From Oligoflexales bacterium (lineage in GTDB: Bacteria > Bdellovibrionota_B > Oligoflexia > Oligoflexales > RGVZ01): 64,000 nucleotides of DNA. A program made the translations under genes and the position numbers. The notes under the pieces are model-generated. The model was given only the letters and a program-made list of their open reading frames with translations. It did no database searches and was not told where the DNA came from. Shown here piece by piece: positions 1 through 12,155 of this stretch. Within the stretch, counting starts at the first letter, position 1. Each line of letters starts with the position of its first letter. The stretch covers positions 5,889 through 69,888 of the forward strand of contig JBIIGV010000233.1 in assembly GCA_044236265.1 (NCBI GenBank), given 5' to 3'.

Positions 1-471
1 AACGCGCTGACACTCGCCTCCGCTTAACGCCCCCGGTAAATGGTCTAATCGAGCGGAGAGTCCGACCTCCGCCAAGGCCTGGCGTGCTTTGACGCGAGCA
101 TCTTCTTTTCCAGCAATCTCTAAAGGTAGAGAGACATTTTCAAGGGCCGTAAGCGAGGGCATTAGATGGAACTGCTGGAAGATGATTCCCAAGGATCGTC
201 CGCGCCAACGTGCTAACTCCAAATCGCTCAAACTGGCTATGTTAGTAGACCCAATAACTAAAGTTCCAGATGAAGGGCGATCGAGGGTTCCGAGAAGCGA
301 AAGTAACGTGGATTTACCGCTGCCACTCGGGCCGATAATCGCCAGAGATTGGCCACGACGAAGATCAAGATCAACACCTTTTAAGACATCAATGGGGCCT
401 GCAGGCGTCGTCCATGTTTTCGTGAGTTTTTCTGCTTTTAGGACGATGTCTTGAGAGTTGGAGCTAATCAT
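1..471 (-). CDS. ABC transporter ATP-binding protein (YbbA/LolD-like); the C-terminus runs off the window start
   Basis: Reverse-strand translation from the ATG at 471-469 gives MISSNSQDIVLKAEKLTK...IIGPSGSGKSTLL (Walker A)...LPGALSGGECQRV (ABC signature), reaching position 1 in frame (157 codons, no stop). It is absent from the ORF track because it has no stop in the window. The + ORF 89..454 is its antisense shadow. Confidence 0.85.
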   Translation of the reverse strand, partial: MISSNSQDIVLKAEKLTKTWTTPAGPIDVLKGVDLDLRRGQSLAIIGPSGSGKSTLLSLLGTLDRPSSGTLVIGSTNIASLSDLELARWRGRSLGIIFQQFHLMPSLTALENVSLPLEIAGKEDARVKARQALAEVGLSARLDHLPGALSGGECQRV

Positions 472-1070
472 AAGAGACTTTCCAGAAATTTGGCGACGTG
501 ATCGGCAATGATTTTGTGTCCCGAGACGTTGGGATGAATTCCATCTGGTAAATTTAACTCAGCTTTTGCTGCGACGCCGTCAAGCAGAAATGGCAATAAT
601 GGAAGTTTCAGTTGCTTGGCAAGAGTTGGATAAATTGAGTCAAATGATTTTGCATAGGCAGCACCTAAACTTGGTGGGACTTTCATACCAGCTAAAATTA
701 CTTTTTTTGCTCCAAGTTCTGTTGCAATCTGGGCCGTCTTCTCAAGGTTTTTACGGGCAGAGGTGACGTCTTGTCCCCTTAGTCCATCATTAGCGCCCAG
801 AGCTAGAAAAATCCAATCTGGTTTGAGCTGAGATTTCATGTGCCATCTTACGCGGGATGGTCCGCTGGCTGTGGTGGATCCACTAACGCCTGCATTAATA
901 AGCGTGACGTTGTGCTTTTTTGCCTTGAGGGCCTTTTCTGCGACGGCGGGCCATGCGGACTCCTTCGGGACACCATAGCCTTCTGTTAATGAGTCGCCAA
1001 GGCAAAGAATGGTTGTCCCATGCGCTGGGAGCCCAAGACTTAGAATGACAACTAAAAAAAAGTATCTCAA
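468..1070 (-). CDS. tesA: Secreted SGNH/GDSL hydrolase (thioesterase I / arylesterase, TesA-like)
   Basis: Signal peptide MRYFFLVVILSLGLPAHG. SGNH blocks are ILCLGDSLTEGYG (block I, Ser), LALGANDGL (block III) and PDGIHPNVSGH (block V, Asp/His). The start is TTG at 1070. Its TGA stop overlaps the ATG of the downstream ABC ATPase (ATGA at 471-468). Confidence 0.8.
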   Translation of the reverse strand: MRYFFLVVILSLGLPAHGTTILCLGDSLTEGYGVPKESAWPAVAEKALKAKKHNVTLINAGVSGSTTASGPSRVRWHMKSQLKPDWIFLALGANDGLRGQDVTSARKNLEKTAQIATELGAKKVILAGMKVPPSLGAAYAKSFDSIYPTLAKQLKLPLLPFLLDGVAAKAELNLPDGIHPNVSGHKIIADHVAKFLESLL

Positions 1071-1072
1071 AG

Positions 1073-1978
1073 TTATTCCCAGACCGACTCTGCAAGCAGT
1101 TTTGTGTCAGAGTACAAATCGTAAATATCCTGTGAGGCGGTATGACGCTTGAAAAGCATTTCTGTTTCGCCATCTCCGTCGAAGTCACCGGCATCCACTA
1201 ACATCATATCTGAGCCAAGATAATGTATCTCTTTACTCGGTAGAATGCGAAATGTTTCTGTCTTGCGCGACTTAGGTATTGTTTGTATCGACACAATCAA
1301 ACCATGTTTGACAGAGGCCCAGGTGCGATGAATACGAACGTCTTTTTCATTAAATTGGTAGAAGTCTGCCTCGCTTTCCGGGCTCGCCATTTTTTTATTC
1401 AGTTCATCAATCATTTGTTTAAGATGAGATCTTGATTTATCGGCGGTGGCTTGACGCCATTTATAAGGGTCAACGCAGGAGCTGCTAAGCGATGATTTAA
1501 GCAAGATCGGTTTATAAACGGGTGTGGCTAGCCATCCCGCGTAGTCAGCTGATCTTTTTGTGCGCCAGGGTGCACGATCCTCGGGTCGCAGGAGGTAGGG
1601 TGGTTTTGCGCCAGCTTCATTCTCTTTCTCCAGCATGGCCGTTAACTGACCTTCGGCTCGTCCGCCAAAACAGACGTCCCAGGAAAAAGCTTTCGGAAGA
1701 GCTACGACAGGATTGCTATCTTGAAGTCTTGGGGCGGCCTGCCAAGGTTTCTTGTCGATACGCACAAAAAGAGGTCGCACCCGGGCTTCATACTGTGTGT
1801 CATTTTTGACTTCAGATTTTTCTTGTCCAGAGCCTACTGATTTTTTTTCATCAGCGGGCGCAGTTGTTTGATTTGGCGTCATCGGCCAATCTTCCAAAAC
1901 ACCGACCCAATTTGTCCATGCGAACGATGGACTGGCAATTAATATTGAGAAGATAGATAAGTAGCGCAACAGGAGCAT
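1073..1978 (-). CDS. Hypothetical secreted protein with an FG-GAP/EF-hand-like DAGDFDGDGETE motif
   Basis: The long ORF is 1073..1996. I prefer the ATG at 1978, which has GGAGA about 9 nt upstream and gives the signal peptide MLLLRYLSIFSILIASPSFA. The stop lies 2 nt from the tesA-like start, so it is probably the same operon. No family recognised. Confidence 0.55.
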   Translation of the reverse strand: MLLLRYLSIFSILIASPSFAWTNWVGVLEDWPMTPNQTTAPADEKKSVGSGQEKSEVKNDTQYEARVRPLFVRIDKKPWQAAPRLQDSNPVVALPKAFSWDVCFGGRAEGQLTAMLEKENEAGAKPPYLLRPEDRAPWRTKRSADYAGWLATPVYKPILLKSSLSSSCVDPYKWRQATADKSRSHLKQMIDELNKKMASPESEADFYQFNEKDVRIHRTWASVKHGLIVSIQTIPKSRKTETFRILPSKEIHYLGSDMMLVDAGDFDGDGETEMLFKRHTASQDIYDLYSDTKLLAESVWE

Positions 1979-2031
1979 GGATTCTTTCTCCCACAACGGT
2001 TTAAGACATATGAGTGCTCACTCAAATGATA

Positions 2032-3339
2032 TCATGCGACGCGTTTGGAGCGGGAGTCGCGGCGCAGGTTTAGAGGTAGAATTTTTGCAGCCGCTTCGAT
2101 AGACGGACGAACGGTCATAAGTGTTGCAATTCCTGACTTTACTCGCAGATCTTTAAAACGGAACAAATGATGACGGCGTAGATACCAAAGAAGGCCAAAT
2201 CCTGTCAAAAGTCTAAGAACGCCCGAAAATGCGAATAGAGTATGATAGCTATCTGTTAGTCGGAGAATGTAGCCCCCAGCGATTCCTCCTGCAACGCTTC
2301 CCAAACTACTTAAAGCTAAATAAACGCCGAGCTTCTGTGTAATACTGCGGGGATACATATTCTGAACAAGCAAAATACTGATCAAATCAAAGCCCGCCCA
2401 ACTGAGTCCTGAAAGAATCTGCAGAAAGCTCAACCAAGGTGTACTTTCGTTAATAGCCCATAGAACCGGAACGGTACCGATTGCGAAGGTGGCGATAGCC
2501 AGGCCTTCAAATTTTCGATTGTCGTCCAGAAGGCGTGCCCAGTTAGTCAGGCAGAGAGCCTTTGTAATCAACGGGAGTGCGGTCAAAAATGAGTAGATCG
2601 TAAATCCTAAATCGATCTCCCGAAGCATGTATGTGGAGTAAAAAGGTGACGAGAGGTTGACGGCGCATCGAAACAGCATCATGACTAAACTTAATTTAAT
2701 AATTGAAACAACGGCCTCATCGGGCGGCACAGTAGCGGAGTGACTTAGGTTTAAGTGTGTTTTCTCTGCCGTTAGATAAATGAGAGACATCGAGATAAAT
2801 CTTGTTCCAGCTGCAACAAGCAGGAACATGGCCATAACATTATTTGTTAGTCCTGTTTCCAAAATCCTCGCCGACGAGAGATTACAAACGAGAGTCAAAA
2901 TTGTCATAAGCATGGCGCGGCGACTGAAAAATCGATTGTGAAGAGAGGCATCAACGTTGTGCGCTAAAATTTCCTGAGTCGGGCTAGAAGAAGTCATTCC
3001 TCCAACCCAGTACATGCACTGACCGATAAACATCCAGGTACTATGACCGCCTCTGATTGCGAGAGAGTGGGCCATGATTACGAGCCCAGCAATTTGCACA
3101 GCCATCGCGCAAAGAGCGAGGCGCTTTGCGTCGGAACAAAACTTTCTAACATTGGTGAGGGCTGCCTGTGACAGTGCTCCTAAAGCCGCTGGCACAGTAA
3201 TAAATACAGCCAAGGTGACGGGATCCATATCTTGGCTGCCATAGTAGATCGCCAGCAGCACTTCGCTAAAGCCAATAGTCACACCGAGGCATAGTGCTTC
3301 GATATACCAAGCGGTGTTTTTTGATCGTGTGGACTGCAT
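2032..3339 (-). CDS. Major-facilitator-superfamily-like polytopic membrane transporter
   Basis: 435-aa ORF that is hydrophobic throughout, with about 12 predicted helices in two halves separated by a charged loop (NRFFSRRAM). It starts at an ATG with an adjacent AGGGG. Substrate unknown. Confidence 0.65.
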   Translation of the reverse strand: MQSTRSKNTAWYIEALCLGVTIGFSEVLLAIYYGSQDMDPVTLAVFITVPAALGALSQAALTNVRKFCSDAKRLALCAMAVQIAGLVIMAHSLAIRGGHSTWMFIGQCMYWVGGMTSSSPTQEILAHNVDASLHNRFFSRRAMLMTILTLVCNLSSARILETGLTNNVMAMFLLVAAGTRFISMSLIYLTAEKTHLNLSHSATVPPDEAVVSIIKLSLVMMLFRCAVNLSSPFYSTYMLREIDLGFTIYSFLTALPLITKALCLTNWARLLDDNRKFEGLAIATFAIGTVPVLWAINESTPWLSFLQILSGLSWAGFDLISILLVQNMYPRSITQKLGVYLALSSLGSVAGGIAGGYILRLTDSYHTLFAFSGVLRLLTGFGLLWYLRRHHLFRFKDLRVKSGIATLMTVRPSIEAAAKILPLNLRRDSRSKRVA

Positions 3340-3423
3340 CCCCTAAGGATATCACGCCGGCGTCTTTGGTTGTGGCCGGCGTCGATGCAAAGCGCTGAAA
3401 TTTCGAACAAAATATGGCTAATT

Positions 3424-4047
3424 TTATGGTCGTCTAATCGATGATTTAATCATTTTTGCAAGCATATCGATTGTACGATCATTAAAGTGATCCCAATGCA
3501 CGACAAGGTCAGCTTGATGCTTGGTTGGAGCTACGAATTGATCATGCATGGGCTTAACGGTTGAAAGATATTGTTTGATAACGCCCTCATTGGTTCGACC
3601 ACGTTCATCGACATCGCGACGAAGTCTGCGAATGAATCGAACGTCGTCACTCACATCAACAAAAATGGCGCAATTCAGGTGTTTTCTTATTTCGGGGGAG
3701 TAAAGGGCGAAAATCCCGTCAACTATGATCACATCTACAGGATCAAGTCTGGCGACTTTGGAGCTACGCGTGTGGCTGGCAAATTCGTAGGTTGGGCGAT
3801 CAATCGCTTTACCCATTGCAAGCTGCTCAACGTGGGACGCTAAAAGCTCCATTTCAAGGGCATCGGGATGGTCAAAATTGACCCTCTCACGGGCGGCTGG
3901 CTCCAAATGGGCCAAGTCCCGGTAGTAATGGTCTAGCTGAAAAATTGTGATGGCAAGGTCTGTGCACCGTTCTTGGATTTTGCGGGCTATGGTGGTCTTT
4001 CCCGATCCTGATCCACCTGCAATGCCTATCATCAGTGGGGTTTGCAT
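3424..4047 (-). CDS. udk: Uridine kinase
   Basis: IGIAGGSGSGKTT P-loop, DHYY and NFDHPDA motifs, 207 aa. GGAGG lies 9 nt upstream of the ATG. It is divergent from the mmsA operon. Confidence 0.9.
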   Translation of the reverse strand: MQTPLMIGIAGGSGSGKTTIARKIQERCTDLAITIFQLDHYYRDLAHLEPAARERVNFDHPDALEMELLASHVEQLAMGKAIDRPTYEFASHTRSSKVARLDPVDVIIVDGIFALYSPEIRKHLNCAIFVDVSDDVRFIRRLRRDVDERGRTNEGVIKQYLSTVKPMHDQFVAPTKHQADLVVHWDHFNDRTIDMLAKMIKSSIRRP

Positions 4048-4100
4048 GTTCTTGGACCTCCAAACCGGGGTGGATAATGCCTTCTAAGCAAGCCGAATAA

Positions 4101-4131
4101 TTGACAAAGGAGCTTGCATTTTCGCTAAAAA
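4101..4131 (+). promoter_or_regulatory. Candidate sigma70-type promoter for the mmsA operon
   Basis: TTGACA at 4101-4106 and an A/T-rich TAAAAA at 4126-4131. The spacer is 19 nt, which is longer than optimal. It sits in the 127-bp divergent udk/mmsA intergenic region. Confidence 0.25.
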
Positions 4132-4174
4132 ATCACCAAAATGTCAATAATTTCGATGTAAAAGGTGTGAAAAC

Positions 4175-5647
4175 ATGCTGGTAGAACGTCTTAAGACTGT
4201 TCGCGACTGCGACAATTTCGTTAATGGAGTCTTTGTAAAAGCAAAGCAGTATTCCGATGTTGTGTCTCCTTGGACCGGTGAGATCATCGGAAGGGTTGCC
4301 ATGTCGGGGCGTGAGGATGTCCAAGCTGCAGTAACAGCAGCGACCAAGGTCTTTCCAATCTGGCGTGCTACGCCAATCAAAGAGCGCACCACGAAGTTGT
4401 TTAAATTTCGCGAGCTTGTTTTGGAGAAATTAGATTTTCTTGCCAATGTCGCAGCACTAGAAGCCGGCAAGACCGTTGCTGAAGCCAAGGCAGGAATTTT
4501 GAAGGGGCTTGAGGTCTCCGAGTTTGCGCTGAGTTTGCAGAACATGGATTCCGGTGGAGCCATGGAAGTCAGTCGCGGTGTTACCTGTGAATACAGGCGT
4601 GAGCCATTGGGCGTTGTAACGGGAATCGCGCCATTCAATTTTCCAGCGATGGTCCCAATGTGGATGTACCCAATCGCTGTGACCCTCGGAAACTGCTTTA
4701 TTCTGAAGCCCTCCGAAAAAGTTCCGCTGACATCGCAGTGGATGGCTGAACTGATGCATGCCGCTGGATTTCCAGCTGGTGTCTTTCAACTTGTGAATGG
4801 TGGACGTGATGCTGTTGAGGGTCTCATCGATCATCCTGACGTCAAGGCCGTAGGATTTGTCGGCTCGACGCCGGTGGCGAAAGCTCTTTATGCTAGAGCG
4901 ACATCTCATGGTAAGCGAGCCTTGTGTTTGGGTGGTGCTAAAAATCATCTTCTCGTGGTTCCAGACGCTGACGAAAAAATAACTGTTCGGGGAGTCGTAG
5001 ACTCCTTCACAGGTTGTGCAGGACAGCGTTGTATGGCTGCCAGTCTAATGCTTGCCGTTGGATCCGTGGATCATATCATCAATAAGATTGCACAGACTGC
5101 GTCAAGTCTTGAGCTCGGGCCGCAAATGGGAGCCATCATCGATAAATCCGCGCTTGAGAGAATTCGCACGGCCATTGCGGATGCTGAAAAGCATGGAGCG
5201 AAAATTTTGGTCGATGGGCGCAAGGCCAACCCTCCGAAGGGCTTTGAAAAAGGATGCTGGATCGGTCCGACGATCATTGATCGAGCAACCCCAGACATGA
5301 ATTGTGCTCAGATGGAGATTTTTGGGCCCGTGATCACCATTGTTCGCGTAAATAACTTGAGTGAAGCCATGGCGCTTGAAGCCAAAAGCCCGTTTGGTAA
5401 TGCCACAAGCGTGTTTACCACCAGCGGCGCAGTGGCAAGATTTGTTGCAGACCATGCAACCAACGGCATGATTGGCGTCAATATTGGAGTTCCAGTTCCT
5501 CGAGAGCCATTTTCTTTCGGTGGAAGCAAAGAGAGTAAATTCGGAACCTGCGATATTACCGGCGAGAGTGCGCTGGAGTTTTGGTCCCAGAGGAAAAAAA
5601 TAACCATGAAATGGGCTGAGCAGTCCGATGCAACGTGGATGAGCTAG
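4175..5647 (+). CDS. mmsA: CoA-acylating methylmalonate/malonate-semialdehyde dehydrogenase
   Basis: 490 aa. Family-typical strings are PFNFPAMVPMWMYPIAVTLGNCFILKPSEKVP, the catalytic Cys context GCAGQRCMAAS, and the C-terminal IGVNIGVPVPREPFSFGG. Confidence 0.9.
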   Translation: MLVERLKTVRDCDNFVNGVFVKAKQYSDVVSPWTGEIIGRVAMSGREDVQAAVTAATKVFPIWRATPIKERTTKLFKFRELVLEKLDFLANVAALEAGKTVAEAKAGILKGLEVSEFALSLQNMDSGGAMEVSRGVTCEYRREPLGVVTGIAPFNFPAMVPMWMYPIAVTLGNCFILKPSEKVPLTSQWMAELMHAAGFPAGVFQLVNGGRDAVEGLIDHPDVKAVGFVGSTPVAKALYARATSHGKRALCLGGAKNHLLVVPDADEKITVRGVVDSFTGCAGQRCMAASLMLAVGSVDHIINKIAQTASSLELGPQMGAIIDKSALERIRTAIADAEKHGAKILVDGRKANPPKGFEKGCWIGPTIIDRATPDMNCAQMEIFGPVITIVRVNNLSEAMALEAKSPFGNATSVFTTSGAVARFVADHATNGMIGVNIGVPVPREPFSFGGSKESKFGTCDITGESALEFWSQRKKITMKWAEQSDATWMS

Positions 5648-5705
5648 CAGTGACTAAAAGCGCGTCTACGCATTCATGGTTCGGATGGAAATGAAGGAGG
5701 CTGTC

Positions 5706-6965
5706 ATGCCGGATAAGAAAAAAGTTAAACACATAAAGTTAACGAGTCACCCAGGGCTTCCTGGTGCCGAGGTTGCAAAACCGATTCGCTGGGGGGCAAA
5801 GACTCCAGGAGAGCGTGGTCCCGTGATCGCTTCGGTCACAAATCCTGCGCATCGTAATGTTATTGGAACGCACAGCGGAAGTTACACCGTGTACAGAGCT
5901 TTGGCTGTTGCTGCTGGCGCGCTCAACGCCGAACATCGTCCAGATCTTACCAACACAACGCCAGCCGAATCATTGGGCCCGCACCCTCAGTGGCTGGATC
6001 CCGAAAAAATTGTGTCGATTGATCCCTGGGGTGCAGATATTGCTACGGCATTCGCCGATGACTTGAAAAGTGGTTACGACATTCGTCCTACGATCGCGGT
6101 TACAAAAGCGCACATCAATATGCCAGAGCTTCAAGCTGCGATTCAGGCAGGACGCTTGAAGGCTGACGGTAAAATCCTCAGCGCAAATGGTGATTGTGTC
6201 GTCACCAAAGCTGCAATCGAGCCTGTGTGGTGGTTGCCTGGCATCGCAAAGCGATTTGGAATCGAAGAGCCAGAGCTGAGACGGATTCTCTTTGAACAAA
6301 CTGGTGGAATGTATCCAGAGTTGGTCACAAGACCAGATCTTGAGGTCTTCCTTCCGCCGATTGGTAGCATGTCTGTGTACTTCTTCGGTGACATTACCAA
6401 GATTGGTAAAGAAAACGTTGAACACGCTTGTCGTGTGCACGACGAGTGCAATGGTTCAGATGTTTTCGGTAGTGACATCTGTACATGTCGTCCCTATTTG
6501 GCGCACGGAATTGAAGTAGCAATCGAAACAGCACAACGCGGCGGCGTTGGCATTATCGTTTACTGTCGAAAAGAAGGACGCGCTTTGGGCGAAGTGACCA
6601 AGTTTCTTGTCTATAACGCCCGTAAGCGCCAAGAAGGTGGCGACACGGCTGAAAAATACTTTGAGCGAACCGAGTGCGTGGCTGGAGTCCAGGACATGCG
6701 CTTTCAGCAATTGATGCCTGATGTTCTTCATTGGCTAGGGATAAAGAAGATCGATCATTTTGTTTCGATGTCGAATATGAAGTTTGATGCCCTGGCGACC
6801 AGCGGAATAAAAATTATCAATCGGGTACAGATTCCTGAAGAGCTGGTCCCGGCTGATGCCAAAGTGGAAATGGACGCGAAAAAGGCAGCTGGATACTTCA
6901 CGGCAACGGGAGTTCCGACAAATGAGGAACTTAAAAAGGCCAAGGGTCGAGGCTTAACTGAGTGA
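5706..6965 (+). CDS. GTP cyclohydrolase II-like protein (URC1-type long form)
   Basis: The C-terminal half carries the RibA-type zinc motif RVHDECNGSDVFGSDICTCRPYL and GRALGEVTKFLVYN. The roughly 200-aa N-terminal extension is typical of the URC1 subgroup rather than riboflavin RibA. I prefer the ATG at 5706, which has AAGGAGG 5 nt upstream; the track ORF starts at 5676. Confidence 0.8.
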   Translation: MPDKKKVKHIKLTSHPGLPGAEVAKPIRWGAKTPGERGPVIASVTNPAHRNVIGTHSGSYTVYRALAVAAGALNAEHRPDLTNTTPAESLGPHPQWLDPEKIVSIDPWGADIATAFADDLKSGYDIRPTIAVTKAHINMPELQAAIQAGRLKADGKILSANGDCVVTKAAIEPVWWLPGIAKRFGIEEPELRRILFEQTGGMYPELVTRPDLEVFLPPIGSMSVYFFGDITKIGKENVEHACRVHDECNGSDVFGSDICTCRPYLAHGIEVAIETAQRGGVGIIVYCRKEGRALGEVTKFLVYNARKRQEGGDTAEKYFERTECVAGVQDMRFQQLMPDVLHWLGIKKIDHFVSMSNMKFDALATSGIKIINRVQIPEELVPADAKVEMDAKKAAGYFTATGVPTNEELKKAKGRGLTE

Positions 6966-6987
6966 AAGCTCTAGAAGGGGCGCTGTG

Positions 6988-8220
6988 ATGTCTGACAATG
7001 CCGACATTTTATTTATGCGCTCGCCGCGAACTATTCGCGAGCGAAGTCGACAGCTTTATGAAGTCGGACTTCAGGCTAAGTTGCCACACTTTCGCGTTCG
7101 CCCAGAAAAAATTGCAGACGTTGCAAAATTTGTTATCGATGTGACCAGGGAGAATTATCCGGACGGTAATATTCCATACCATAGTCGTTGGAGTCACTTT
7201 CAGGTAGGTGGAATCGATCGCATTTCCTGGCTTCGAAAACATGCCCCGGAGGGGCGCCGCGATCAATTGTCCATGGCGCGGATGTTTTATGATTTAGTTG
7301 TACCGAGTATTCTGCTGGATGCGGGTGCTGGTATGAAATGGGCTTATAAGGACTCTTACGGCAAAGAATTTCGCAAAAGCGAGGGTTTGGCGGTCGCAAG
7401 TTTTGATATGTTTGCCCAAGGATTGTTTTCCAGTGATCCTCGGTGTGCTATGCAAAGTGACGCCACAGGTCTTGAGCGACTTCAGGCTGATGTTCTAGCC
7501 AATGGTATGCAAGTTTCTTCAGATAATCCCCTGGTTGGGCTTGAAGGTCGTTTGCTGCTGCTTCGAAACCTCGGCAAAGCTTTGCGTAATCCTAAGTTCT
7601 TCTCTGGCAAAGCAGCGGGTACCATTGGTTCATTGGTGGACTATATACTCAATCAATTTGGTGCTGAGACGGTTAGCGCAACTGATGTGCTCTCAACCGT
7701 GCTTGAAGCCTTTGGGCCAATTTGGCCAGGCAGAATTGAAATCGCAGGTGAAAACCTTGGAGACGTTTGGAAACACTCCCTGGCTGGTGGCGATGGGGTC
7801 ACGAAGAATTTAGTTCCATTCCATAAACTCAGCCAGTGGATGACTTACTCTCTGCTTGAACCTTTGGAGTGGGCGGGTGTTCGCATCACCAAGGTTGAGG
7901 AAATGACGGGACTACCCGAGTACAGAAATGGTGGTCTGTTTCTTGACTGCGGTGTTTTGGAAACAATCCGTCCGGACGCTTTGTCGAGAGAATATAGTCC
8001 CGGTGATGAATTTATTGTTGAATGGCGCGCCTTGACCGTGGCTCTCCTGGATGTGGTCGGTGCTGAGGTTCGTAAAGAACTCGGGAAAACACCGGCAGAA
8101 CTTCCGCTTGCTAAAGTACTTCAAGGCGGAACTTGGGCTGCCGGTCGAAAGATTGCGGCCAAGTTGCGATCCGATGGCGGATCACCAATAAAAATTAAAA
8201 GTGACGGAACGGTCTTTTAG
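6988..8220 (+). CDS. DUF1688 / URC4-like protein
   Basis: About 410-aa soluble protein lying between the URC1-like gene and upp. Size and context match the URC4 (DUF1688) family, and the [11 protein letters not shown] motif region resembles what I remember of that family. The assignment rests mostly on context and needs an HMM search. GTG 6985 and ATG 6988 are both possible starts. Confidence 0.55.
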
Positions 8221-8246
8221 GACCTGATTTTGAGAGGAACAAAAGT

Positions 8247-8882
8247 ATGACTACTAGGCAAATTCATGTGATCAATCATCCGATGGTACAACATAAGCTG
8301 ACCATTATGCGTGAGAAGGGTACAAAGACAGGCGAATTTAGATCGCTCTTACGTGAAATCAGTATGCTTCTCGGTTATGAAGTGATGCGCGATGTTCCAA
8401 TGACCACGCGTCGTATTGAAACACCAGTTGCACAAATGGATGCCCCTGTCATGGCTGGCAAAGACCTTGCGTTCATTTCGATCATGCGCGCAGGCCAGGG
8501 GATTTTAGATGGAATGCTCCGTCTCGTCCCCACAGCAACTGTAGGGCACATTGGATTGTACCGGGACCCAAAGACTCTTGTTGCTGTTGAGTATTACTTT
8601 AAGGTTCCAAAAGATATTCAGGACCGAGATGCGATAGTTTTAGATCCAATGTTGGCGACAGGTCATTCTGCGGTGGCAGCTCTCGATCGTCTCAAGGAAG
8701 CAAAACCAAGAAGTATCAAATTTGTTTCGCTACTGTGCGCGCCTGAGGGTGTTGAGTATTTTCATGAGTATCATCCGGATGTTCCGATCTATACGGCTTC
8801 GGTCGATCAAAAGCTGAATGAAAAAGGATACATCATTCCTGGCCTGGGCGATGCTGGGGATCGTTTGTTCGGTACAGCCTGA
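8247..8882 (+). CDS. upp: Uracil phosphoribosyltransferase
   Basis: 211 aa. PRPP-binding loop [15 protein letters not shown] and the C-terminal [16 protein letters not shown] signature. Confidence 0.92.
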
Positions 8883-8917
8883 GCTTTGGTTGTTTTTTAA
8901 TGATTCACCAGCTTCGG

Positions 8918-11191
8918 TTAATTTGAGATGGCGGGTATCTTGTTGCTACCGCAGCCCCAATTATTGCCACCAGGACCAGAAACACTTATCGAGTAAATGG
9001 TCGCCCTTTTTGTTGGGCAGGATGTAACGGCTGACCACACATTCCCTGAGCGAGACCACTTCGACGGCGCATATGGACTCACCCTCGGTGCGCCGATCAT
9101 TTCACCGGTAATTGAAATTGATAGGTTACAATAGCCACGGGTTGAAGCTCTTTTAGCGGTCGCGCTACAGCCTCTGGTTGGAGTCTGTGCAAGAGGCGGT
9201 ACGGCGCTGCTTTGACAATTGCTTTTTGAGCCTCCGGGTCCCTCTACGGTTGCTGTAAAAGTTGTCGTTGAAGTGGTAGGACACCCTCCAGTTCCTGTCC
9301 AATTATTTGTATTCCAACTTCCCGTGGCCAAAGGCGAAACTAAAAGTGGCTTACTGGTATCGATAATTCCAGATCCTGTCAGAGATAGGCTGCATGAGGT
9401 CGTCGTGGCCTGGCGAGATGCTGTCAATGAGCAAGATGGTGGAGTTAACTTCGGTGCTGTCGCTGAGCATGTTGAACTTCCGTCGTTTCCATAGACTGTT
9501 GCGGTTAATAGAGTGTCTGACGTCTGGCTACAGGCTACGTTGTTACTGGCTGGACTGCTGCCATCCCAAGTTACCGAGCTCCCGAGGATGCTAAAACTCG
9601 ATATGGTTCCAGCCAATGACGTTCTTGTTAAAGTATAGGTACAATTGGCACTGGTTCCTATGCGCGAAAAACTTAGACTGCAATCCGGCGCTGTGGTTGT
9701 CTTTGGCACTTCATTGCTAAAGCACTCTTGCCCTTTTCCATCATCAGACTCTAGAGCTGCAGCAAAACGAGTGATATTCGCTTTGGCGCAATAAGTAGAT
9801 CCAGTCCAAGTTGTCCCTGACTGAACCAAATTTGTCGGTGCGGAAGGTGATATTGTGGCGCTCTTGGCGTTTTTGCCAGCGATCTGAGTGATGGTCAATT
9901 CACAGGTGTCAGTTTGATCCTTCCTTTTTGCAGTCATCGTGCAACTTGGAAGAGTCACAACGGGAGCGATCACCCCAGTTTCGCAAGGGCGACCGGTGCC
10001 GCCTTGCCCTGTGAGTGTTGCATTAAATACTGTTGATGAACTTGTGGCGCAAGCTGCGTTACCTGTCCACACGTTGCCGGACTTTGTCCAGGATGATGGC
10101 CCAACTGGTGTTATGGACGGATTACCGTTTATAGGATCAGCAGAGCCTGTGACTGTTAACGAGCACCCTCCGGTATTTCCGATGCGGCTAGCGGTAATGG
10201 AACACGATGGTACCGCGATCGGCGCAGCGGGTGGGGGAGCTGTGATGATTTTATGTGAGTCGCCAAAACTCTGAATTGCAGATTGAATTTGCGGAGCCAG
10301 TACGCTCATTCGCGGTCCCTGACCTGGGCCTGAATAAGTAACAAGTCCAAATAAGATAGGCATGATTCCATTAGCGGTATTCATGAGTAGAATTGAGGGA
10401 GAACTCGAATCGCCGGAGATCATGTTTTCGTAGTAAAGCTGATAGGCGCTTCCCGGTGGGTTATATTTTGGATCAATAGTAATACCTTGAGGGCCGAAAG
10501 GACTAGCTTGGACGATGAGCGCCTTATTCTCTTGATCAATTCTGAGCAGGGGGCTGTATTGTGCCGCGTAGGTAGCTGCATTGGGATCCAATATTTTCAT
10601 CGGTGTGATGCTGCCAGGTAGGTCGCTGTCAAGGCGAACAACAGCGACGTCGGGATCGAATGTGGACGATAAATATTTCACTTCGATTATTTTTCGAGAA
10701 ATAACTCGATTATCCAGAGTTAAAAAGCTAAGCGTTTGGCCAACCTGACCGTGAAATCCATAATGTTTGGTGTAGATCACATGTCTAGAGGTGATAGCTG
10801 TACCTCGTGGCACATTCTGAGTTACGGCCGTAAGATTGATCCCTGCGATCCAGCTGGCTGGGTTGTATGCTTCTTTTGAACGCCAAATTTTTGCAACCGA
10901 TGGGTCTTTTCCGCAAATTCTTTGCAGTACAGCTCGACTCATTGATTCTCGCCAAGCTCTGTCGGATGTTGTCCCAAAAGTTGAAATTTGCGAGACACAC
11001 GGCGTTGTATTTGCTGTGAGCTGCAGTTCCTGGCCCTCCTCGCCAAATGGTGCTCTGGTTGGATTAGGGTCCTTGAGCATCTCGCCTGGGAAAGAATTAT
11101 ATTTTTCTGAGCCAGAATTAGTTTCTCTAGATTTACAGCTGATTGAATGCGCAAAAGTAAAAGCTAGAATTGATATAAATCCTATACGCAT
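8918..11191 (-). CDS. Secreted chymotrypsin-fold (S1-like) serine peptidase with a C-terminal array of five 4-Cys repeats
   Basis: I prefer the ATG at 11191, giving MRIGFISILAFTFAHSISC. The candidate triad, in full-ORF numbering, is TSRH167, D211VAVVRL and GDS292SSP, with H-D spacing 44 and D-S spacing 81 as in S1 proteases. A Pro-rich hinge APPPAAPIAVP is followed by the repeats. Confidence 0.55.
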   Translation of the reverse strand: MRIGFISILAFTFAHSISCKSRETNSGSEKYNSFPGEMLKDPNPTRAPFGEEGQELQLTANTTPCVSQISTFGTTSDRAWRESMSRAVLQRICGKDPSVAKIWRSKEAYNPASWIAGINLTAVTQNVPRGTAITSRHVIYTKHYGFHGQVGQTLSFLTLDNRVISRKIIEVKYLSSTFDPDVAVVRLDSDLPGSITPMKILDPNAATYAAQYSPLLRIDQENKALIVQASPFGPQGITIDPKYNPPGSAYQLYYENMISGDSSSPSILLMNTANGIMPILFGLVTYSGPGQGPRMSVLAPQIQSAIQSFGDSHKIITAPPPAAPIAVPSCSITASRIGNTGGCSLTVTGSADPINGNPSITPVGPSSWTKSGNVWTGNAACATSSSTVFNATLTGQGGTGRPCETGVIAPVVTLPSCTMTAKRKDQTDTCELTITQIAGKNAKSATISPSAPTNLVQSGTTWTGSTYCAKANITRFAAALESDDGKGQECFSNEVPKTTTAPDCSLSFSRIGTSANCTYTLTRTSLAGTISSFSILGSSVTWDGSSPASNNVACSQTSDTLLTATVYGNDGSSTCSATAPKLTPPSCSLTASRQATTTSCSLSLTGSGIIDTSKPLLVSPLATGSWNTNNWTGTGGCPTTSTTTFTATVEGPGGSKSNCQSSAVPPLAQTPTRGCSATAKRASTRGYCNLSISITGEMIGAPRVSPYAPSKWSRSGNVWSAVTSCPTKRATIYSISVSGPGGNNWGCGSNKIPAISN
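8921..10210 (-). repeat. Five tandem 83-88-aa coding repeats, each with 4 conserved Cys
   Basis: First Cys of each unit falls at ORF residues 360, 446, 534, 617 and 705. The Cys sets are 360/373/411/433, 446/460/498/520, 534/547/584/605, 617/630/667/689 and 705/718/755/777. The shared pattern is PSCS(L/I)TASR..x..C.L(T/S)..G ... W(T/S)G...C ... G..G...C. Confidence 0.8.
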
Positions 11192-11381
11192 ATATCTTGG
11201 ATCCATCGATCGTCTCGCGATAAGTAAGTCATAAAAATTTGTCGTTAACTTGGTTTTAAGGATGCCATAGAAAAAGTCCAAAAAACAGGCGTATTTTGTA
11301 CCCGTGCGGCTTAGGCGGCCGCCTTTGTGACGCTCCTAGATATGACTGCGTGAACCCGTAGAGGCGTTTTTAATTTATGGG

Positions 11382-12155
11382 TCAAATGTGACGACGAACT
11401 TGGAGCATTTTTAGAAGAAAATAACATCCGAGCGCAGCCCATAGGTGTTTGAGTGCGTGACCACTCGTTAGCTCTCTGGTGCTTGCCCAAATTGCTTGGT
11501 CCATGTCTTCGCAAATTTTTGCAAGAACATAGCAGCCGATGGCAATCCCGATATACCCTGCGTGAGTGAAGCGTGCTGGGCATAGCCAAATAAGACAAGG
11601 TATGGCGAGGATCGGGTAGAACTGTACAAACGCGTAAGGGCGCAGGTCACCAGATCCTGAATCCTCCGTCATAATCCAATACACGACGCTCAGTAAGCCA
11701 AGGGCGATCAGTGGCCATAATACAAATTGGTAGGCCCTATTGCTAATGCGCTCACCAATGATGGATGCAAATAACGCGGAAAAACCGATTGTCATGGGTA
11801 AGCGATCCCAAAATAGTCCCCAGTTATCAGGGCGCCAATGGTAGTAGCCAGAGCCAAGAGCCGTCATAAGAACGCCGGAAAAAAATATGATCCAACCTGT
11901 CTTTTGTTCGCCAACTGCATATCCGTTTAACTTGGAGCTTGCAATGCTCATGATTCCCAATATTCCAACGATAGCAAATGGCACATTCGAAAGCACATTT
12001 TGCCAATTAGGCAGATGCATGAAAGGTAGTTCATCAGCAAAGCGGTGATAGGATGGGTCCTGCGCGATTGGATCCAAAGAGGCAATAATACTGGCCACAA
12101 TTAGTGCTGATACCATGAGGAAAGAAAGCCGTTGGCGCTCGGTCGTTAACTGCAT
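11382..12155 (-). CDS. Ceramidase-family-like integral membrane protein
   Basis: Seven-helix-type hydrophobic profile. Motifs DPSYHRFAD, GSGYYHWRPDNWGLFWDRLPMT and SGHALKHL match my recollection of bacterial alkaline-ceramidase-like (PF05875-type) proteins. The ATG at 12155 has GAGGG 8 nt upstream. Confidence 0.5.
   Translation of the reverse strand: MQLTTERQRLSFLMVSALIVASIIASLDPIAQDPSYHRFADELPFMHLPNWQNVLSNVPFAIVGILGIMSIASSKLNGYAVGEQKTGWIIFFSGVLMTALGSGYYHWRPDNWGLFWDRLPMTIGFSALFASIIGERISNRAYQFVLWPLIALGLLSVVYWIMTEDSGSGDLRPYAFVQFYPILAIPCLIWLCPARFTHAGYIGIAIGCYVLAKICEDMDQAIWASTRELTSGHALKHLWAALGCYFLLKMLQVRRHI

Follow-up and report, generated by a model that had tools for sequence, protein, structure and literature searches.

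A stretch of 64,000 nucleotides from contig JBIIGV010000233.1 of a freshwater Oligoflexales bacterium (the window, in whose coordinates all positions below are given) carries, between positions 3424 and 8882, five genes that in all likelihood constitute the bacterial equivalent of the URC route by which yeast catabolises uracil and uridine. This reading of the locus, which an initial annotation had proposed from the DNA alone, is right without being new, and the cluster is an ordinary example of a bacterial version that has already been described. The locus changes nothing fundamental, and three matters that it raises are worth carrying on: the mechanism of the URC4 protein, the apparent dead end at urea, and a missing RibA, the GTP cyclohydrolase II of riboflavin synthesis.

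The five adjacent open reading frames (ORFs) match exactly the positions at which the initial annotation had placed them, and each product scores above the curated cut-off of its family. The minus-strand gene udk (3424..4047) encodes a uridine/cytidine kinase (NF004018, 257 bits, cut-off 180; TIGR00235, 230 bits, above cut-off). Divergent from it runs an operon of four plus-strand genes, which begins with a coenzyme A (CoA)-acylating (methyl)malonate-semialdehyde dehydrogenase, or MMSDH (4175..5647; TIGR01722, 490 bits, cut-off 448.5; PF00171, 413 bits), continues with a URC1-type long paralogue of GTP cyclohydrolase II (5676..6965) and with URC4/urg3 (6988..8220), and ends with upp, the uracil phosphoribosyltransferase gene (8247..8882; NF001097, 278 bits, cut-off 114; TIGR01091, 265 bits). 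The annotation had made its case depend on the 6988..8220 product being a DUF1688 protein, and so it proved, since the match to PF07958 reaches 486 bits, above the gathering score, and covers profile positions 2-420 of 420.

All five genes are intact, with neither frameshifts nor internal stops, and the region is uniform in base composition. Gaps of only 28, 22, and 26 bp separate the four plus-strand genes, which carry Shine-Dalgarno sequences. For URC4, the ATG at 6988, which has the Shine-Dalgarno sequence GAAGGGG 7 nt upstream, is preferred over a start at 6985, and the protein so defined has the length of a 410-residue database protein. MMSDH is the sole protein of the assembly above the TIGR01722 cut-off, the next aldehyde dehydrogenase reaching 253 bits. 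A tblastn search of the whole assembly found single copies of upp and udk; being the only copies, both must also serve ordinary salvage, a point that weighs somewhat against the catabolic reading.

To place the cluster among its relatives, we drew on 516 loci with DUF1688 relatives, identified by a back-translated pattern scan with one genome per species, and compared the best 80 by tblastn with the window proteins and by unsupervised clustering of all ORFs. These 80 loci span Bdellovibrionota, Myxococcota, and Proteobacteria. Five ORF families stood out, namely URC4 (75 loci), URC1 (62), upp (62), MMSDH (55), and udk (53), and no other family occurred in more than 7 of the 80. The five-gene arrangement is therefore not a product of chance. 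By the same count, further conserved neighbours that we had considered, such as a regulator, a transporter, or genes of urea metabolism, were discarded. The order URC1-URC4-upp is shared by the window and most of the 80 loci; in 55 of them MMSDH immediately precedes URC1, and in 62 upp comes after URC4.

Where enough flanking sequence was available (55 loci), all five genes occurred together in 41. In 37 of the 55 they run in the order MMSDH-URC1-URC4-upp-udk on one strand, with udk after upp, and only in four loci of the window's own lineage (L003, L006, L007, and L011) is udk divergent and upstream; the rest have reduced forms, including ones without udk or without MMSDH. The five genes are likewise carried by loci L068 and L049, from cultured Bdellovibrio or Peredibacter. 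Two of the sparser arrangements deserve mention. In Kaistia loci (L029, L032, L043, L048, and L062) only URC1 and URC4 are found, 150-780 bp apart, with no upp, udk, or MMSDH nearby, and in Methylocystis-like/Hyphomicrobiales loci (L058, L076, L060, and L079) URC4 is paired with upp and no URC1 lies within 8 kb upstream. Across a sample of the phylum, DUF1688 was present in 79 of 131 genomes, or 58 of the 83 of high quality, and in none of 14 model-organism control genomes. One genome has a split DUF1688 gene that may be broken (G052, C6:118912-120116, frames of 271 and 157 residues); in another (G005) the match comes in two pieces that nevertheless lie within one frame of 414 residues.

The parallel with fungi is close. 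In Schizosaccharomyces pombe, the GTP-cyclohydrolase-II-family gene urg1, the uracil phosphoribosyltransferase gene urg2, and the DUF1688 gene urg3 are neighbours induced by uracil (PMC2174524). In the yeast URC route, known from Lachancea kluyveri with its genes URC1, URC4, URC6 (the uracil phosphoribosyltransferase), URK1, URC8, and URC3,5, URC4 takes ribosylurea to urea, which is split by URC3,5, and the three-carbon product is 3-hydroxypropionate; the route needs urea amidolyase and supports growth with uracil as the sole nitrogen source (PMC7530994). The Oligoflexales locus shares the GTP-cyclohydrolase-II paralogue, the DUF1688 protein, and the uracil phosphoribosyltransferase, together with a uridine kinase; the genes are clustered as in S. 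pombe, and the predicted products are likewise urea and a three-carbon unit. It differs from yeast in three respects. The yeast three-carbon aldehyde passes through the URC8 reductase to 3-hydroxypropionate, whereas here a CoA-acylating dehydrogenase probably directs it to acetyl-CoA; among the 80 loci the cluster has no conserved short-chain dehydrogenase, and the genome was not searched for URC8 homologues. Yeast has urea amidolyase, whereas here neither this enzyme nor urease is found, and the nitrogen is apparently not recovered. Finally, the bacterial genes form one operon with no pathway-specific regulator nearby.

The claim of a bacterial URC route with a dehydrogenase for the three-carbon aldehyde is supported, though not as a novelty, as the conservation of URC1 and URC4 in bacteria is already published; indeed, the NCBI name for the nearest bacterial homologues is "URC4/urg3 family protein". 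With the reductive Pyd and the Rut pathways the module shares its overall task and malonate semialdehyde as a common late intermediate. Those pathways, however, act on the free base, whereas the substrate of the URC route is the nucleotide, from which ribose-5-phosphate is regained. The ORF clustering of the 80 loci linked neither Rut nor Pyd genes to the cluster.

The URC1-type protein combines a GTP_CH_N domain (PF12471, 282 bits, residues 18-208) with a GTP-cyclohydrolase-II domain (PF00925, 59 bits, residues 241-385). It belongs to the URC1 subgroup that the annotation had assigned it to, scoring 776 bits on the URC1-type model NF005536 (cut-off 403) and falling below the cut-off of every RibA or RibBA model, with 63 bits on NF001591 (cut-off 148) and 55 bits on TIGR00505 (cut-off 206). 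Over 412 columns it is 66.5% identical to the bacterial proteins of PDB entries 7EEV and 7EJ3 (E = 4e-190). Both the zinc-binding cysteines (C258-x10-C269-x-C271) and the catalytic loop, RKEGRALG at residue 298, are intact, and in the alignment with 7EEV they are identical.

A bacterial UTP cyclohydrolase (UTP, uridine triphosphate) has reportedly been described (Zhang et al., ACS Catal 2021;11:8895), and 7EEV and 7EJ3 probably belong to that work. If they do, the substrate of ring opening is most likely UTP rather than uridine monophosphate (UMP), and the window protein is a probable UTP cyclohydrolase. GTP cyclohydrolase II chemistry releases pyrophosphate, which UTP as substrate would fit, and the genes pyrH and ndk, whose products could make UTP, are present elsewhere in the genome. 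The likeness to 7EEV and 7EJ3 extends over the full length, the two-domain architecture, and the zinc-cysteine motif; these proteins come from another organism, and no functional difference was seen in the features compared. Two points weigh against this assignment, in that the attribution of the two structures to the 2021 paper is only probable and that the exact URC1 product is presumed. The initial annotation had given UMP as the molecule whose ring is opened, for which the 66.5% identity makes UTP the more likely replacement, and it had called the chemistry of URC1 poorly defined, which no longer applies now that bacterial structures this similar have been solved. PMC12507026 cites a "UTP cyclohydrolase" paper as a reference for the URC pathway.

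A separate ribA or ribBA gene, whose presence elsewhere in the genome the annotation had proposed to check, exists only nominally. There is a second protein matching PF00925 (G000 contig C185, L001:1474-2610, minus strand), a RibB fusion encoded next to lumazine synthase. In its cyclohydrolase-like domain all three zinc cysteines have become lysine (HRQKPFLDVFGRGLKNKL, compared with HSECLTGDVFGSRRCDCG in Mycobacterium tuberculosis RibBA), and the EGRxxG catalytic loop is also missing. We take this fusion with its degenerate domain to be of the RibBX type. The genome contains ribD, ribE, and ribH, and no protein of the assembly other than the URC1-type one has an intact GTP-cyclohydrolase-II zinc site. 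Five genomes of the same genus, 94-97% complete, have the same two PF00925 matches and no true RibA. An archaeal-type GTP cyclohydrolase III, considered as the missing RibA, was not found in the genus and was thereby ruled out. Other families within the phylum do encode an ordinary RibA, about 210 residues long and scoring 180-235 bits. The genus (genomes G076-G088) thus has no recognisable riboflavin GTP cyclohydrolase II and, for the first step of riboflavin synthesis, no recognisable enzyme.

These observations would suit an explanation in which the cyclohydrolase of the cluster is, or doubles as, the riboflavin enzyme, and the cluster consists of salvage genes beside a cofactor gene: its zinc site is the only intact one, the fusion has lost its cysteines, ribD, ribE, and ribH are retained, and the related genomes have no true RibA. 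The URC1 protein does share with RibA a C-terminal PF00925 domain bearing the C-x10-C-x-C zinc site. Unlike RibA and RibBX, however, it has the extra GTP_CH_N domain, specific to URC1, and it sits in a catabolic operon, its gene always adjacent to that for DUF1688. The URC1-type model gives it 776 bits and the RibA model 63, and this contrast, like its identity to 7EEV and 7EJ3, speaks for the URC1 family. Four genomes of the same genus moreover serve as natural controls: although they have neither URC1 nor URC4, they still encode riboflavin synthase and the RibB fusion, so the rib genes are independent of URC1. On the family scores and these controls we reject the arrangement of salvage genes beside a riboflavin gene, which has become scarcely credible. 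It is conceivable that in this genus the enzyme acts on both UTP and GTP and so provides the first riboflavin step as well, because the URC1-type active site is the sole intact one while ribB, ribD, ribE, and ribH are kept, and we consider this highly improbable. If the enzyme is not dual, that step falls to an unrecognised enzyme in the genus. In six near-complete assemblies of 1-10 contigs from the phylum sample (G118, G119, G122, G123, G125, and G130) the sole PF00925 match is the URC1-type protein; with neither RibA nor RibB fusion, these bacteria may make no riboflavin at all.

No solved structure matched URC4 by sequence, whether the single sequence or a profile was compared with the PDB. 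An AlphaFold2 model built from a 33-sequence alignment (predicted local distance difference test, pLDDT, 93.8; predicted template-modelling score, pTM, 0.92) had, in a Foldseek search, Qng1/DUF2419 proteins as its sole significant fold matches in the PDB (E = 1.8e-9, probability 1.0, template-modelling scores 0.61/0.75), the next match standing at E = 0.4. Weak matches to PF10343 occur in 20 of the 33 family members, the best at E = 8.9e-5. URC4 is a superfamily relative of Qng1/Q_salvage and not a member of PF10343.

Qng1 is a helix-hairpin-helix N-glycosylase that hydrolyses queuosine 5'-monophosphate; in its active site D231 serves as the nucleophile or as a stabiliser, the ribose is oriented by K199 with Y232 stacked on it, and the protein's own C-terminal carboxylate completes the site (PMC9881137). 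No Qng1 homologues were found in the window's phylum, and Q_salvage genes for comparison were taken from Planctomycetota genomes, one of them anchored to StQng1 numbering. Profile alignment of URC4 with Q_salvage by hhalign (E = 3e-4, 268 columns) pairs F-H-K280-L-S-Q of URC4 with F-Y-K199-R-A-Q of Qng1, and L-T-G-L-P-E311-Y312-R with L-T-A-F-A-D231-Y232-K. Within the 33-sequence alignment K280, E311, Y312, and the C-terminus SDGTVF are invariant. The two families thus share, besides the helix-hairpin-helix glycosylase fold of the model, the motifs F-x-K-x-x-Q and L-T-x-x-x-[D/E]-Y-[K/R] at a spacing of 31-32 residues and an invariant aromatic residue at the C-terminus (Tyr in Qng1, the final residue of SDGTVF in URC4), and the predicted substrate of URC4 is likewise a 5'-monophosphate ribotide. 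They would differ in the leaving group, a 7-deazapurine for Qng1 and, as predicted, urea or ureidoacrylate for URC4.

We propose from the modelled fold and these motifs that URC4 is an N-glycosylase releasing ribose-5-phosphate from a ring-opened uridylate. As its most economical substrate we propose ribosylurea 5'-phosphate, which would give urea and agrees with the genetic assignment in yeast. We found no published activity for URC4/DUF1688. Several observations weigh against the proposal: the window URC4 itself has no PF10343 match at E <= 10, hhalign assigns the URC4-Qng1 pairing a probability of 40%, and the catalytic Asp of Qng1 is replaced by the invariant Glu E311.

Such features would accommodate a different order of events, in which URC4, not being a glycosylase, works at an earlier point, for instance hydrating or hydrolysing a ureidoacrylate ribotide and so freeing malonate semialdehyde, with the bond between ribose and urea breaking spontaneously or by the action of another enzyme. 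Besides the Glu at the nucleophile position, URC4 exceeds Qng1 in length by about 90 residues, many of its invariant residues lie outside the shared motif (H65, R67, H70, D111, S131, E132, and D259, among others), and the exact product of URC1 is presumed. Nonetheless, its sole fold relatives are nucleotide N-glycosylases, the Lys that orients the ribose and the Tyr that stacks on it are kept, and no other conserved gene of the cluster could supply a glycosylase; the yeast model, too, puts URC4 at the conversion of ribosylurea to urea (PMC7530994). Early action of URC4 is accordingly unlikely in our judgement, and glycosidic cleavage is the role we favour. This proposal gives URC4/DUF1688 a testable job together with candidate catalytic residues in K280, E311, Y312, and the free C-terminus.

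Put together, the gene products suggest the following sequence of reactions. Upp would convert uracil and phosphoribosyl pyrophosphate to UMP, and Udk would phosphorylate uridine (and cytidine) to the monophosphate, after which the housekeeping enzymes PyrH and Ndk, encoded elsewhere, could raise UMP to UTP. The zinc-dependent URC1-type enzyme would then open the uracil ring of UTP hydrolytically with release of pyrophosphate, and ring opening is predicted to free C4-C5-C6 as malonate semialdehyde and to leave N-ribosylurea 5'-phosphate. On this ring-opened ribotide URC4 would act next, cleaving the N-glycosidic bond to yield urea and ribose-5-phosphate. From its family function, MMSDH is expected to turn malonate semialdehyde into acetyl-CoA, CO2, and NADH. 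Urea would probably be excreted, and the route could serve both gain of carbon and energy and control of the pyrimidine pool.

The fate of urea sets this module apart from that of yeast. The annotation had seen neither urease nor urea amidolyase in the window, and this was borne out and extended to the rest of the assembly, where urease alpha (PF00449) gave no match and nothing scored above the cut-offs for urea carboxylase (TIGR02712) or allophanate hydrolase (TIGR02713). Because the assembly is only 88.7% complete, so that absence from this one genome is not proof and weakens the argument, we turned to the relatives, which carry it: of the 79 genomes in the phylum sample that carry URC4, urease occurs in 6 and allophanate hydrolase in 2, and the remaining 71, some of them assemblies of 1-10 contigs that are 96-99% complete, possess neither enzyme. 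Since both the genome and these 71 relatives lack urea-splitting enzymes, urea is probably a dead end, likely excreted, and the route probably yields acetyl-CoA and ribose-5-phosphate. It follows from the absence of a urea-splitting enzyme in the genome that uracil would not be expected to support growth as a source of nitrogen.

One might still suppose that the operon scavenges nitrogen as in yeast, with urea split to ammonia by an enzyme that is novel or was missed. The yeast precedent, in which the route requires urea amidolyase and lets cells grow with uracil as their only nitrogen supply (PMC7530994), would favour this, as would the 8 of 79 URC4-positive relatives with urease or allophanate hydrolase and the incompleteness of the assembly. 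Against it stand the remaining 71 relatives and the genome itself, the lack of any urea-related gene conserved beside the cluster in the 80 loci, and the nature of the partner that is conserved, a dehydrogenase that harvests carbon. We regard nitrogen scavenging as quite improbable. Apparently, then, the operon is used for carbon rather than nitrogen.

How the cluster is controlled is suggested by the spacer of 127 bp between udk and MMSDH, which contains a conserved block of 43 bp with overlapping divergent promoter-like hexamers (4114..4156, no strand assigned). This block, TTGCATTTTCGC...CAAAATGTCAATAATTTCGA, is nearly identical in the related loci L006 and L007 and its flanks diverge; the proteins of the relatives that share it are 73-83% identical, with 73% for URC4 of L006 and L007. 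A promoter pattern scan found TTGACA-18-GAAAAT on the minus strand (10 of 12 matches), and TTGCAT-17-CAAAAT on the plus strand, below the threshold of the scanner, was read by eye. Two ATTT(T)CG repeats also lie within the block, together with the promoter-like hexamers, which stand face to face. The sequence pattern is consistent with a control site that may be shared by the udk and operon transcription units. No pathway-specific regulator gene is conserved near the cluster according to the ORF clustering of the 80 loci. We dropped the idea that the leader contains a riboswitch or some other RNA element, as Rfam gave no match in window positions 1-12000 even at E <= 1.

Downstream, between upp and a convergent gene, the pattern scan found a weak terminator-like hairpin (8874..8893, plus strand) with a stem of six pairs followed by TTTTTAATGA; terminator-like sites in the region are no more numerous than in shuffled sequences, and this hairpin is suggestive only. 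The convergent gene (8918-11281, minus strand) encodes 787 residues without a Pfam or NCBIfam match and is not conserved beside the URC cluster. Beyond udk lies a gene for a major facilitator superfamily (MFS) transporter (2032-3339, minus strand; PF07690 only), which is kept in L003, L006, and L007 and lies about 2.3 kb from udk in L006 and L007; a role in uptake of uracil or nucleosides is speculative. As it is kept in the closest relatives only and is not tightly linked, we did not count it as a conserved partner of the cluster.

In conclusion, the module apparently retains carbon and ribose phosphate from pyrimidines and sheds both nitrogens as urea. Yeast does the opposite, keeping nitrogen and excreting 3-hydroxypropionate. 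That the URC module of Bdellovibrionota travels with a dehydrogenase forming acetyl-CoA, and not with an enzyme that splits urea, points to pyrimidines as a source of carbon and ribose and to urea as waste. The Oligoflexales lineage is probably predatory, a lifestyle assumed from its phylum, which tempers the ecological argument. A route operating on the carbon side would suit bacteria that feed on prey rich in nucleic acids, and in RNA in particular.

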